DNA of 64,000 bases from IMG/VR virus record IMGVR_UViG_3300025704_000003. One strand, written 5' to 3'. Of the stretch, positions 36,622-40,641 are shown one piece after another. The position numbers and the translations under genes are program-made. How positions within the stretch are numbered: position 1 is the first letter of the stretch; every line of letters begins with the position of its first letter. This DNA comes from a virus. The notes under the pieces are model-generated. The model was not told the DNA's origin, made no database searches, and was given only the letters and a program-made list of their open reading frames with translations.

Positions 36622-38580
36622 TTATTGAACAAGCGCAAACCCGTCATTATTATTACCGGTTGCAACTGCAGTAGTAGTGGAGCTATTACTGTTATCAGTG
36701 TTGCTATTATCGATATTATTAATAACTACCTGCTGAAAGTTTTTGCCCAGTTCGCTTGCTATAGCTTGTACAGCCTGAAGAGCCGCTGCCGTTTCAGAAT
36801 CTCTTGTGCTAACGCGTTCTGCTGTAGAAGAATTATTAGCATTAATTCTAGATCGAGCTACGGCCCGTGATGAGTCGTCTCCTAGACCCACAGAAAATGT
36901 TGGCATTACTTCAAACGGAAATCTGTCTTTTATAAAGTCTGGAATAAGGCTTGATGTTGGTTTAGGTATTGTTATTCCAGGGAAGCTGAATTGCAATGAT
37001 TCAGATAATATAATATATAATTCATCACCAAGGTTATTAATAAAATTAAACACTTTATCAAAAGCATTTTTAAATCCATTAGTGATTCGTGTTACCTGGT
37101 AATTAAATTCAGCTGCGACTAGATCTCTCATTAGTCCAAAGTTATCGCCGACAAACCTTACTACGTTTTTGATTCCATTCCATACTGGATCAACCATGTC
37201 AGTAAAACTAAATCCTCTTAAGATTTCTGCAGCGTTTTCCATACCAAACTTTTCAAGCAACCAGGCAGGTATCGTTATAAAGAGCAAGTCAAACGCTTCG
37301 GTAATACCTTTAACTACCCCAAGAAGACCTCCTTCAATACCTGCTATTAACTTCTCTCCGAAGGTAGCGCCTTCTTCTTCGCTAGTAAATCCGTCATAAA
37401 ACCCTGTAACAAAATCTATAACGCTTATCAATATTTGCGTAAAGGGTCTCAATACGGTTTTCAATACAAGCTCTATAGGCTTAAGTAAAGGTTTTAAAAA
37501 TCCATAAGCTTTATCAAGGAAATCAGTAACTTTACCAAATGCACCAGCGAACTTCTCGGCAATACTAACACCGTCTTCTCCTACGCCAAATGATATTTTT
37601 GGAAACTTAGGTAATTCAAGATCAATTTTACTTACATAGTCACCGACGGCACTTAAAAATCCTATCTTAGGAATTTCTGGGACCTTAAGATCTATTTTAC
37701 TTATTTTGTCACCAGCCTGATTTAAAAAACTTATTGCTGGTACTGACAATTTAAATTTAATATTATCAATAAATTTACCAGCGTCATCGATAAAATTGAT
37801 TGCTGGCAACTTAATTTTAAAATCGATAAAGTTAGTTATTGCTTTACCAGCATCATCGACAAAATTAATTACTGGTAGCTTGATCTTATAGTCAATAAAA
37901 TCTGCTATCTTTGTTCCAGCAGCGTCAACAAAATTGATTACTGGTAGCTTGATCTTGTAATCTATAAAGTCACTAATCTTTGTTCCAGCTGCATCAACAA
38001 AATTGATTACTGGTAGCCTAATTTTAAAATCAATAAATTCACCAATGGCCTCACCAGCAGAGGTAATAAATCTAGGAATAGGAATTTGCGGCAATTTTAT
38101 TTTACCCCAGCTCCCATCTTCAAATGTTATTTTAGGTAATTTAGGCAGCTTAAACTCTGTTATAGATTTTAGCGAGGTTCCAAGTGCGGTAAGAGACGCT
38201 TTTGCATTTTTAACTAGTCTAGGAAGATCTAAAGCTTTAAGAGCAGCATCAAAGCCGGTAAGCGATGCTAAAGATGCAATGCCCAATGGGCTAGTTAACA
38301 GTCTTAGTGCACCATATAAAGAAGCAAGATCTCCTAAACCAATAGAGCCAGTAGTTTTTTCAAGAGCCTTACTAATACCAGCTCCGGTAGTACCACCGGT
38401 TTTACTACTGCCTTCTATCTTATCTTCTAGGCTATCTCCACCAAAAAATTTTCTTACAAGTACGCCAGTTAAATCATCGACCGATTTAGTCGTTTCCGTT
38501 TGAGCGTCAATAAGGTCATCGGTCTGCTTCATTTCTGAACGCATAACGTGTATAAGATCGTTTAGTGTTGTATCAGCCAT
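36622..38580 (-). CDS. tape-measure-like (gp29 position) protein with 23-aa repeats
   Basis: 652 aa, amphipathic helical; follows gp26/gp51. Confidence 0.6.
   Translation of the reverse strand: MADTTLNDLIHVMRSEMKQTDDLIDAQTETTKSVDDLTGVLVRKFFGGDSLEDKIEGSSKTGGTTGAGISKALEKTTGSIGLGDLASLYGALRLLTSPLGIASLASLTGFDAALKALDLPRLVKNAKASLTALGTSLKSITEFKLPKLPKITFEDGSWGKIKLPQIPIPRFITSAGEAIGEFIDFKIRLPVINFVDAAGTKISDFIDYKIKLPVINFVDAAGTKIADFIDYKIKLPVINFVDDAGKAITNFIDFKIKLPAINFIDDAGKFIDNIKFKLSVPAISFLNQAGDKISKIDLKVPEIPKIGFLSAVGDYVSKIDLELPKFPKISFGVGEDGVSIAEKFAGAFGKVTDFLDKAYGFLKPLLKPIELVLKTVLRPFTQILISVIDFVTGFYDGFTSEEEGATFGEKLIAGIEGGLLGVVKGITEAFDLLFITIPAWLLEKFGMENAAEILRGFSFTDMVDPVWNGIKNVVRFVGDNFGLMRDLVAAEFNYQVTRITNGFKNAFDKVFNFINNLGDELYIILSESLQFSFPGITIPKPTSSLIPDFIKDRFPFEVMPTFSVGLGDDSSRAVARSRINANNSSTAERVSTRDSETAAALQAVQAIASELGKNFQQVVINNIDNSNTDNSNSSTTTAVATGNNNDGFALVQ
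37770..38060 (-). repeat. 69-bp coding tandem repeats
   Basis: about four copies of (Y/F)KIKLPVINFVDAAGTKIxDFID. Confidence 0.85.
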
Positions 38581-38715
38581 TTATTTGCTCAAACTCTTGT
38601 CTCTTGCTCTCTCATTTTCTTCTTTAATATGTTCAATAAGCAGTGTTAAATAAATTTCCCTCTCCCAGGGTACCATGTTTTCTATTTCAGATAACGAATA
38701 ATGGTGATGTTGCAT
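38581..38715 (-). CDS. gp51: baseplate hub assembly protein gp51-like (not in ORF track)
   Basis: MQHHHYSLSEIENMVPWEREIY; frame is open further upstream to the gp26 stop region. Confidence 0.8.
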   Translation of the reverse strand: MQHHHYSLSEIENMVPWEREIYLTLLIEHIKEENERARDKSLSK

Positions 38716-38768
38716 CAAAGCAAAATTCGTTTTAAAATATCCAACTAATGATTCATGAGAAAGGCATA

Positions 38769-39470
38769 TTACAAAAAATCGTTCATACCCTGGAGCGTCA
38801 TATGATTTTCATGTCCGCATGATTTACACTTATAATCTAGCTCGTGCTTTAGGGTTGGCATTGCCTCAACAAATTCGCGAATCTTTGAAAACTGATCTCC
38901 ACTTAGTGATTCGATAAACTCCATAATCTCTTCTTCAGATTCATCTCTAAAATCAATTCTTTCTTGTGGAGTCTCAACTGCTTCAATGCAACGAGAAACC
39001 ATTTTAAATGTCATTTCTGTTTGCGATTCAAATTGTCCAAGATCTAAAAGATCGTTATATCTAGGCCAACGCAACGATAGCGTAAGCTCATCAGTAATAG
39101 CCACCTTTGACTCTATTTCTGGCACTTCAATTTGAATAGCTTCGATAGGAATAATAGCGTCATTTGATGTTTCGCATTCACTACATTTTAAACCTACCTT
39201 TGTAGTTTCACCTACTGACTTAGCTCGAATACGTGTAAACAAGTATTCTACATCAAACGTTGTAAGTTTGTTTTTGTCAATAGTATCCTGTACGCACGAT
39301 TCAATGGTGTCAACAACGGCATTCATTGCTTGACCTTGATCCTGAGATTCCATCGCAAGCATAAGAACCTTTTCTTCTTTTACAAGGTACGGTCTAAATC
39401 TTACTGCTTGTTTCGTTGAGGGTATTACTACGTCATACTTTGGTACATTATTAATTTTTGGTAAAGCCAT
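38769..39470 (-). CDS. gp26: baseplate hub assembly protein gp26
   Basis: MALPK..P.Y, RPYLVKEEK, FDVEYLF.RIRAKSVGE, two CxxC. Confidence 0.9.
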   Translation of the reverse strand: MALPKINNVPKYDVVIPSTKQAVRFRPYLVKEEKVLMLAMESQDQGQAMNAVVDTIESCVQDTIDKNKLTTFDVEYLFTRIRAKSVGETTKVGLKCSECETSNDAIIPIEAIQIEVPEIESKVAITDELTLSLRWPRYNDLLDLGQFESQTEMTFKMVSRCIEAVETPQERIDFRDESEEEIMEFIESLSGDQFSKIREFVEAMPTLKHELDYKCKSCGHENHMTLQGMNDFL

Positions 39471-40057
39471 TATACAGATCTCCAGTCTTTATATGATAAT
39501 TGCACATTCAATTCAACCATTCCATTTTGTTCGTTATTAAACTGTATAGCGTTCATGGTTGTAGGAAACGCCTTGTCTAATACGCATGTGTACACAGATT
39601 TTGCACTCGTAAATAAATCAATATCTATGTCTACGTTCAGCTGCCCGATATTAAAATTAATATCAATCGGAAGATCAAGAGCAGCGCCTTTTTCTAATTG
39701 TTCTATTCTCACTTCAAAACCATATTCGTCAGGATAATTCAAATCTTTAGTATCAAAGTTTATAATAAGACTTTGCCAATATTCAAAATACTCTTTGACC
39801 GCATAATCATTTGTAACATGAAACGTCAATGTCACATCATCCTGAGCATACATATATGCTTGCTTAACTTGTTTCATACCAACGATACGTTCATTCGTAA
39901 GTATCTGGCGACCTGGAAGCTGCACGTCTTTACACAATAAATTTAATTGACGAGTACTGACGATACCAGGTAAAGCAGGAAGATATACTCTAAATAAATT
40001 AGGGGAAGCAATGCCACGGCTAATTGCACCTTTAAGTTCATCTACAGAAAATGACAT
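39470..40057 (-). CDS. tail tube-like / baseplate tube initiator (gp54/gp19 fold)
   Basis: PNLFRV, LCKDVQLPGR, W...I, AFPTTM; start trimmed to ATG 40057. Confidence 0.7.
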   Translation of the reverse strand: MSFSVDELKGAISRGIASPNLFRVYLPALPGIVSTRQLNLLCKDVQLPGRQILTNERIVGMKQVKQAYMYAQDDVTLTFHVTNDYAVKEYFEYWQSLIINFDTKDLNYPDEYGFEVRIEQLEKGAALDLPIDINFNIGQLNVDIDIDLFTSAKSVYTCVLDKAFPTTMNAIQFNNEQNGMVELNVQLSYKDWRSV

Positions 40058-40641
40058 TAGATAGCAGCCCTTGAATCTTTGTATACAGTAGATTTGCCAG
40101 ACTTTTGAAAATCTGCGGTTGGTAGAAACGTAGCGATCTCCCACTCAGGCGGAGGTACGTATGCAAACCTACTTCTTACATTTGAATTAAGATAGTGTTT
40201 AAAGCATGGCTTAAAATATTTTAACTTCGAAGCTCTTTTAAGTGTATTGTACGTCGCCTGGAATTTTGTAGTCTCATCATATTTTCTATTGTTTGTTATA
40301 TCCATAAGACTATCTAACATTTTTGCACGTAGTGGTACAGGTAGATAATGTAGATTTAATCCATAGAATCCGCCTGGTGCAGGACCAACCACTACTGTCA
40401 ACGGAAAGCTATCGTAATACGGCAGGTCATCCTTTGTTTTAGGATCGTAAAAGAACATATACATGTTGCCTGCAATGCCACGATTCTTTAGCTCAATAGG
40501 ATCTTCCTTCATCAATTGAGAACGATTGACTTTACCCATAGCTTGCGCTTTGCGTCTAAACCAATTCATTGACTCTTTTGTGCGAGGATTGATCCCTGCT
40601 CTAAATGCTTCATATTCTAGTTTTTGAAATATATTTGCCAT
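40057..40641 (-). CDS. gp2: DNA end protector protein gp2
   Basis: YDPKTK..LPYYD.FPL, GLNLHYLP, PCFKHYL. Confidence 0.9.
   Translation of the reverse strand: MANIFQKLEYEAFRAGINPRTKESMNWFRRKAQAMGKVNRSQLMKEDPIELKNRGIAGNMYMFFYDPKTKDDLPYYDSFPLTVVVGPAPGGFYGLNLHYLPVPLRAKMLDSLMDITNNRKYDETTKFQATYNTLKRASKLKYFKPCFKHYLNSNVRSRFAYVPPPEWEIATFLPTADFQKSGKSTVYKDSRAAI

Follow-up and report, generated by a model that had tools for sequence, protein, structure and literature searches.

The gp26 gene of the T4-like phage studied here is very probably a tail assembly chaperone (TAC) gene that makes a short and a long protein, judging by its own sequence and by those of its relatives. The stretch of viral DNA that we analyzed, here called the window, comprises 64,000 nucleotides (IMG/VR record IMGVR_UViG_3300025704_000003). 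On its minus strand, gp26 is followed in the -1 frame by an extension that is listed as 'gp51' in cyanophage annotations, and the comparison of related loci confirms that the change of frame between the two is real. We hold it to be moderately probable, on the features of the site and its surroundings, that the single gp26 gene yields both chaperone forms through a -1 ribosomal slip on U UUU UUG.

The gp26 open reading frame (39470-38769, minus strand), which is the predicted short chaperone form (TAC-N), encodes 233 aa. Over residues 10-233 it matches the Pfam family T4_baseplate (PF12322) almost from end to end (E=1.3e-62, profile positions 2-218 of 219), and it matches phrog_150 'baseplate hub' with E=5e-63. 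T4 gp26, T4 gp51 and the gp26 of the window all belong to this family. On the minus strand, the 3' end of gp26 reads AAC GAT TTT TTG TAA, and the slippery heptamer in it, T TTT TTG (38778-38772), stands in X XXY YYZ phase immediately 5' of the 0-frame stop TAA (38771-38769). In the -1 frame, a TGA at 38811-38809 closes the upstream side, and from the heptamer onwards the frame is open to a TAA at 38583-38581; its translation from the heptamer begins FFVICLSHESLVGYFKTNFALMQHH... The extension, which would be the C-terminal part of the long form, thus has 65 codons from the first TTT plus the TAA (38581-38778, minus strand). Upstream of TTG 38718 and ATG 38715 the -1 frame contains no ATG, GTG or TTG, and no Shine-Dalgarno-like sequence lies ahead of ATG 38715. 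On the minus strand, neither promoter-like nor terminator-like sites were found in the interval from gp26 to the -1 ORF. A sequence-only reading of the window had given this anatomy correctly, with all its coordinates for the gp26 ORF, the heptamer, the stop, the -1 frame and the next start: the heptamer directly before the stop, the -1 frame open to 38581 and the lack of an ATG before 38715 and of a Shine-Dalgarno-like sequence there can all be read from the sequence.

For comparison, we used a gp26 profile to retrieve 80 loci from IMG/VR, and added 11 phage records and two more viral contigs. The count of 92 loci given below is that of the loci in which the extension follows gp26; some comparisons refer to subsets of 85 loci or of 83 distinct -1 peptides. 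An in-phase NNT TTT TTN occurs at the same position at the end of gp26 in 92/92 related loci, across which the identity of gp26 to that of the window is just 31-74%. The homologues thus retain both the T-run and the -1 phase, as the fusion proposed in the sequence-only reading would have it. The hosts represented are Prochlorococcus, Synechococcus, Pelagibacter, Methylophilales, Vibrio, Sinorhizobium, Rhizobium and Ochrobactrum, and the loci include Kyanoviridae phages and finished isolate genomes from many laboratories. In the subset of 85 loci, the codon 5' of the run is GAT, AGT, AAT, TCT or GCT, with T in the wobble position every time, compared to a background of 32-77% T-ending codons for these codon families in the same genes; similarly, the first Phe codon is TTT in every locus, compared to 75% in the background. 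Between the heptamer and the 0-frame stop there is no codon in 45 loci and one codon in 35 (80/85, 94%). In all loci whose contig covers it, the -1 frame stays open over 57-68 codons, and in about 27 loci it is closed directly 5' of the heptamer. Heptamers ending in G, as in the window, are rare (2/85, plus one of seven further loci) and re-pair less well.

A slippery heptamer by itself is not significant, with the homologues having about 0.9 in-phase XXXYYYZ heptamers per gp26 ORF; it is the conservation of its position that exceeds chance. The conservation of phase could be partly inherited rather than selected. In-phase T6 runs number about eight in the long ORFs of the window, a count too noisy to assess codon-phase avoidance. 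The sole T-run longer than six in these ORFs is a T8 run in slippery phase on the plus strand (2778-2785), which is located inside a long ORF, 91 codons 5' of its stop.

The extension matches phrog_634 ('baseplate hub assembly catalyst', gp51) over residues 2-61 with E=2e-28, the match starting at residue 2, 20 residues N-terminal of the first Met, and it also matches the C-terminal end of the gp26-family profile phrog_150 (positions 231-281). In a comparison with hhalign, the extension profile aligns to residues 204-244 of T4 gp51 (E=5.5e-5). T4 gp51 (249 aa) in turn is covered by PF12322 over residues 1-201 (E=4e-52), and its remaining stretch of about 48 residues matches phrog_634 and the -1 profile; in terms of PHROG profiles, it matches phrog_150 over residues 3-248 and phrog_634 over residues 147-246. 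By these matches, T4 gp51 has the architecture predicted for the frameshift product, and we infer that it is the counterpart of the predicted long form. The extension of T4 gp51 is in frame with its gp26-like domain, whereas in the window the join exists only after the frame change. The predicted long form of the window has 296 aa (38581-39470, minus strand), would consist of gp26 residues 1-231/232 and the -1 peptide, and is colinear with T4 gp51. In a poor model of the fusion proxy P0004, a read-through protein (pLDDT 67, mixed-row alignment), the extension is helical, and the model was used solely for this feature.

The heptamer of the window resembles U UUU UUA of HIV-1 gag-pol in being U-rich and suited to tandem slippage. 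In HIV-1 gag-pol, Leu-containing and Phe-containing junction products are both seen, from which two possible junction peptides are predicted for gp26. Since in a tandem slip the A-site UUG is decoded as Leu before the simultaneous slippage, the junction may read ...NDFLVICL... instead of, or alongside, ...NDFFVICL... The corresponding candidates predicted for mass spectrometry are ...GMNDFLVICLSHESLVGYFK and ...GMNDFFVICLSHESLVGYFK. HIV-1 gag-pol differs in having a downstream stem-loop as stimulator, and no such conserved structure was found at the gp26 site.

The main alternative to a ribosomal slip is transcriptional slippage, in which RNA polymerase would add one U on the T6-T8 run and a fraction of the mRNA would join gp26 and the extension. 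Since the insertion of one U gives the same protein as the ribosomal slip, sequence alone does not separate the two. The signal is a pure homopolymer of 6-8 T, as slippage of the polymerase would have it, yet the run comprises just six T in 37/91 loci, including the window, and is never longer than 8 (≥9 in none). The productive slippage sites known from bacteria mostly have lengths of 8-9 and above, or require an upstream hairpin. The run always begins with the wobble base needed for a perfect X XXY YYZ heptamer, even in the 38 loci with a T8 run, which would survive the loss of that T. Further T6 runs are found inside the ORFs of the window. The lack of a conserved downstream RNA stimulator, described below, agrees with transcriptional slippage, and a low yield would not speak against it, as a few percent of the long form may suffice (the ratio of G to GT in lambda is about 30:1, PMC5009743). 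The title of Vladimirov et al. 2022 can also be counted in its favor, but PMC10885494, where it cites that paper, takes it to concern two separate genes and not slippage. A short T-run fits better with a ribosomal heptamer than with slippage of RNA polymerase, and we favor the ribosomal slip because the run is short, its start is fixed at the wobble position of the heptamer, and the stop lies 0-1 codons downstream; in at least one virus, a stop close to the shift site is known to be of importance (PMC5009743). We therefore consider transcriptional slippage rather unlikely, though it is the strongest of the alternatives.

With respect to stimulators of a ribosomal slip, we found no conserved RNA structure 5-9 nt downstream of the heptamer, either by per-locus folding z-scores, by a fixed-register pair matrix or in the form of a candidate hairpin, and no downstream helix that is backed by covariation. 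A weak and variable hairpin about 19 nt downstream is paired to 64%, compared to 27-44% in slid controls, with a mean z of -1.4. Upstream of the heptamer, at a distance of 10-14 nt, there is a purine tract with the family consensus RRARGG, which in the window reads CAGGG (38788-38792, minus strand). At its positions -11 and -10, 80/83 loci carry GG, and it is a possible Shine-Dalgarno-like stimulator. Selection on the tract at the RNA level is not demonstrable, because the GG belongs to the codons of a conserved Glu/Lys-Gly that is also kept in T4 gp26. This, the missing downstream structure and the G at the end of the window's heptamer count against a ribosomal slip. Phage P-SSM2 (L001, 1486-1525) and its close relatives have an 11-bp hairpin about 5 nt after the heptamer, with a folding z of -2.9, and an ATG five codons from the heptamer in the -1 frame; in this subgroup there may be a genuine stimulator, a start of its own, or both.

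A second alternative dispenses with recoding altogether and assumes a separate gp51 of about 45 aa, translated from TTG 38718, ATG 38715 or a non-canonical codon nearer the heptamer, and acting together with an unjoined gp26. Most database records annotate gp51 in this way, as a small gene of its own; Met is common at position 21 or 22 of the -1 peptide; and in some cyanophages, such as P-SSM2, the ATG five codons after the heptamer would offer a start. The conservation of the -1 peptides, however, begins at the heptamer and not at the first Met (MQHH in the window), as also expected from the fusion proposed in the sequence-only reading. Among the 83 distinct peptides, H8 (98%), L11 (96%), N18 (98%) and F19 (100%) are conserved, and the residues upstream of the Met, in particular residues 6-19, are as conserved as those downstream. 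The first Met itself is conserved in just 75% of the peptides, with Ile, Leu, Val or Ala in its place in the others. Nor is any start codon conserved: it is missing at the Met position (20-22) in at least 13 loci, and two, L035 and L083, have no ATG, GTG or TTG before codon 28-34. A profile of the -1 peptides matched 2214 representative clusters in a large protein library, and the ORFs called for the extension start at many different positions of the profile. In ORFs that have a start further upstream, the 14 additional residues show no conservation, as they represent an out-of-frame reading of the C-terminus of gp26. In several records, the blastn similarity to other phages starts exactly at the heptamer. 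A separate gp51 would also leave the invariant T-run, the wobble T and the placement of the stop unexplained, would lack both a Shine-Dalgarno-like sequence before ATG 38715 and a minus-strand promoter in the interval, and is at odds with T4 gp51, where a gp26-like domain functions with the extension as its C-terminus. This makes an independently translated gp51 very improbable.

That the gene is in truth a single in-frame gp26-gp51 gene, broken by a sequencing error of the assembly in the homopolymer, hardly deserves belief: homopolymer runs are error-prone and a few metagenome proteins (P0004, P0005, P0052, P0087) do read through in one frame, but the same frame arrangement recurs in all 92 loci, finished isolate genomes among them, while the read-through proteins are singletons, of which P0004 and P0005 are garbled just before the junction and P0087 has relatives (L092, L093) with a normal heptamer and stop.

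Singletons of this kind were all that emerged when longer homologues of the -1 peptide were looked for. In two of these read-through proteins, P0052 (226 aa) and P0087 (270 aa), both from the representative library, the gp26 domain leads straight into the extension, with the junction of P0087 being Trp-Phe and not Phe-Phe. They could be natural in-frame genes for the long form, as in T4, or the result of homopolymer errors. PF28602 is listed on P0004 and P0005.

Returning to gp26 as a source of two chaperone forms, the structure of its N-terminal part points in the same direction. The AlphaFold (AF2) model of gp26 has a pLDDT of 93.8 and a pTM of 0.87, and the three top matches of its residues 1-96 in VIA-align, a search independent of Foldseek, were to small chains, namely 3fgx (Z 8.1), the HK97 TAC 2ob9 (Z 7.2) and YqbN, 3klu (Z 7.1), with the next match at 4.4. 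In Foldseek, the two best matches were both to 2ob9 (prob 0.94 and 0.90), at E-values that are non-significant (E=0.26-0.32). A search of the PDB by sequence with a gp26 profile gave no match. From these model comparisons we conclude with moderate confidence that the N-terminal domain of gp26 has the tail-assembly-chaperone fold. The remainder, with its two Cys pairs, is an additional domain. The pairs (C-x2-C, residues 96-99 and 214-217) have weak matches to zinc-ribbon families of Pfam, and Cys pairs occur at similar places in T4 gp26 and T4 gp51 as well. They would form a zinc-binding domain added to the chaperone fold, which lambda-type chaperones do not have.

The gene order around gp26 is also that of a tail chaperone locus. 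Immediately upstream of gp26 there is a tail-tube-family gene (39470-40144, minus strand; phrog_45 tail tube, E=5.5e-31), which is preceded by gp2-like and gp4-like genes. Downstream, a tape-measure-like gene of 652 aa (36622-38580, minus strand) begins at the base that follows the stop codon closing the -1 ORF. It matches phrog_1272 'tail length tape measure' weakly (E=3e-4) and showed no significant similarity to T4 gp29 in a pairwise comparison, so that we take it for the tape measure mainly from its position and size. The order is thus tail-tube-family gene, gp26, -1 ORF, tape-measure-like gene.

The lambda gpG/gpGT pair and the conserved -1 frameshift of tail chaperones are reportedly the subject of Levin 1993 and of Xu, Hendrix and Duda 2004. 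As in lambda, the gene of the window is located between the tube gene and the tape-measure gene, and the fold of its N-terminal domain resembles the HK97 TAC 2ob9. It differs from lambda in the slippery sequence (U UUU UUN compared to G GGA AAG), in the size of gp26, which is about twice that of gpG due to the added C-terminal domain with its zinc-ribbon-like Cys pairs, and in having no detectable sequence similarity to lambda G. That gp26 and gp51 form a G/GT-type pair, as the sequence-only reading had put forward, is supported by the conserved slip site, the architecture of T4 gp51, the number of PF12322 copies (see below), the gene order and the fold of the N-terminal domain. A -1 frameshift is conserved in phage genes for tail assembly chaperones, with gpG/gpGT of lambda as one case (reviewed in PMC5009743). 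A frameshift at GTTTTT, inferred from conservation only, has further been described for the TAC genes of Pakpunavirus and Andersonviridae (PMC12846349). These resemble the window in being myovirus TAC genes in which the 3' end of TAC-N carries a conserved T-run and the downstream ORF is misannotated as a separate hypothetical gene, and differ from it in belonging to a different protein family and to different phage families.

In the scheme that we infer for the window, including the ribosomal nature of the shift, its efficiency and the binding partners of the products, most ribosomes would end at the TAA (38771-38769) and release the short form of 233 aa. A minority would slip back by one base on U UUU UUG (38778-38772) and read the -1 frame to 38581, yielding the long form of about 296 aa. 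Its added tail of about 63 aa, predicted to be helical, would be what databases list as the gp51 of cyanophages. By analogy with lambda G/GT (PMC5009743), the gp26 part shared by the two forms would form a coat on the tape-measure protein, whose gene lies just downstream, the extension would connect the tape-measure complex to tube or hub proteins, and both the short and the long form would be absent from the virion.

Phage T4 encodes the pair in two genes. Genes 26 (gp26, 208 aa) and 51 of T4 are divergently transcribed and are not fused, in contrast to the single gene with a frame change in the window; further, in T4 the tape-measure gene 29 is separated from gene 51 by genes 27 and 28, whereas the -1 ORF of the window adjoins the tape-measure-like gene. 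PMC3004832 counts T4 gp26 and T4 gp51 among the hub assembly chaperones and describes gp51 as essential, without a known function and missing from the final particle. We counted the copies of PF12322 in complete genomes of T4 and of related phages and found two in T4 and one each in P-SSM2, ACG-2014e, Mosig and Melnitz, these being the four related genomes examined. The end of T4 gp26, GAG TTC TTT GAG TTA CTA TAA, keeps the Phe-Phe but is not slippery, and T4 gp51 crosses the equivalent junction as GAC GTG TTT AAG, without a T-run. The proteins therefore do not require the T-run, which is retained only where one gene yields two products. In a tree, the single-gene gp26 sequences form one clade (support 95/85), with the N-terminal domains of T4-group gp26 and gp51 adjacent to each other. 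This agrees with a gene duplication in the lineage of T4, although the joining of the two may be due to long-branch attraction.

Tentatively, and with more doubt than confidence, we propose that the shift is truly ribosomal and occurs on U UUU UUN without RNA structure, with the slip being promoted by slow termination at a stop 0-1 codons downstream; that this arrangement is ancestral in the T4 superfamily; and that T4 and its close relatives later duplicated the gene into 26 and 51.

The first literature searches for a frameshift at gp26/gp51 or at the baseplate hub returned nothing relevant, and the sequence-only reading had regarded the pair as undescribed for T4-like phages. This is wrong, as is evident from Vladimirov et al. 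2022, a paper cited in PMC10885494 and PMC12846349. [quoted passage not shown] From these extracts, its system appears to be the same as that of the window, whose phage is uncultured, marine and not annotated in this way, and gp26/gp51 as G/GT-type chaperones of T4-like phages appear to have been published already. If the paper attributes the long form of single-gene phages to a non-ribosomal cause, and if the ancestral ribosomal reading proposed above is true, the latter would revise it.

The frame change also offers an explanation for a puzzle noted in 2010, when the gp51 of cyanophages and of marine vibriophages was found to be without the first ~200 residues of T4 gp51, with no explanation given (Sullivan et al. 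2010, PMC3037559): the missing residues would be supplied by gp26. With it, the T4 superfamily also falls in line with long-tailed phages in general, which make tail chaperones in a short and a long form. In practice, these findings are of use for the repair of annotation, the biology itself not being new. The extension is matched by 598 phage records. In those that we examined, it is either listed as a separate small 'baseplate hub assembly catalyst' gene or left unannotated, and none of them has a joined CDS; the long protein is therefore missing from their annotation. Examples of an unannotated -1 ORF are Synechococcus phage ACG-2014e (L002, NC_026928), at 1503-1693, and Ochrobactrum phage ORM_20 (L090), at 1501-1692.

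Within the tape-measure-like gene of the window, we observed a 69-nt tandem repeat in 3.9 copies (37776-38041), which encodes 23-aa units that are about 79% alike. Internal duplications of this kind are of the sort that alters tail length in tape-measure proteins.
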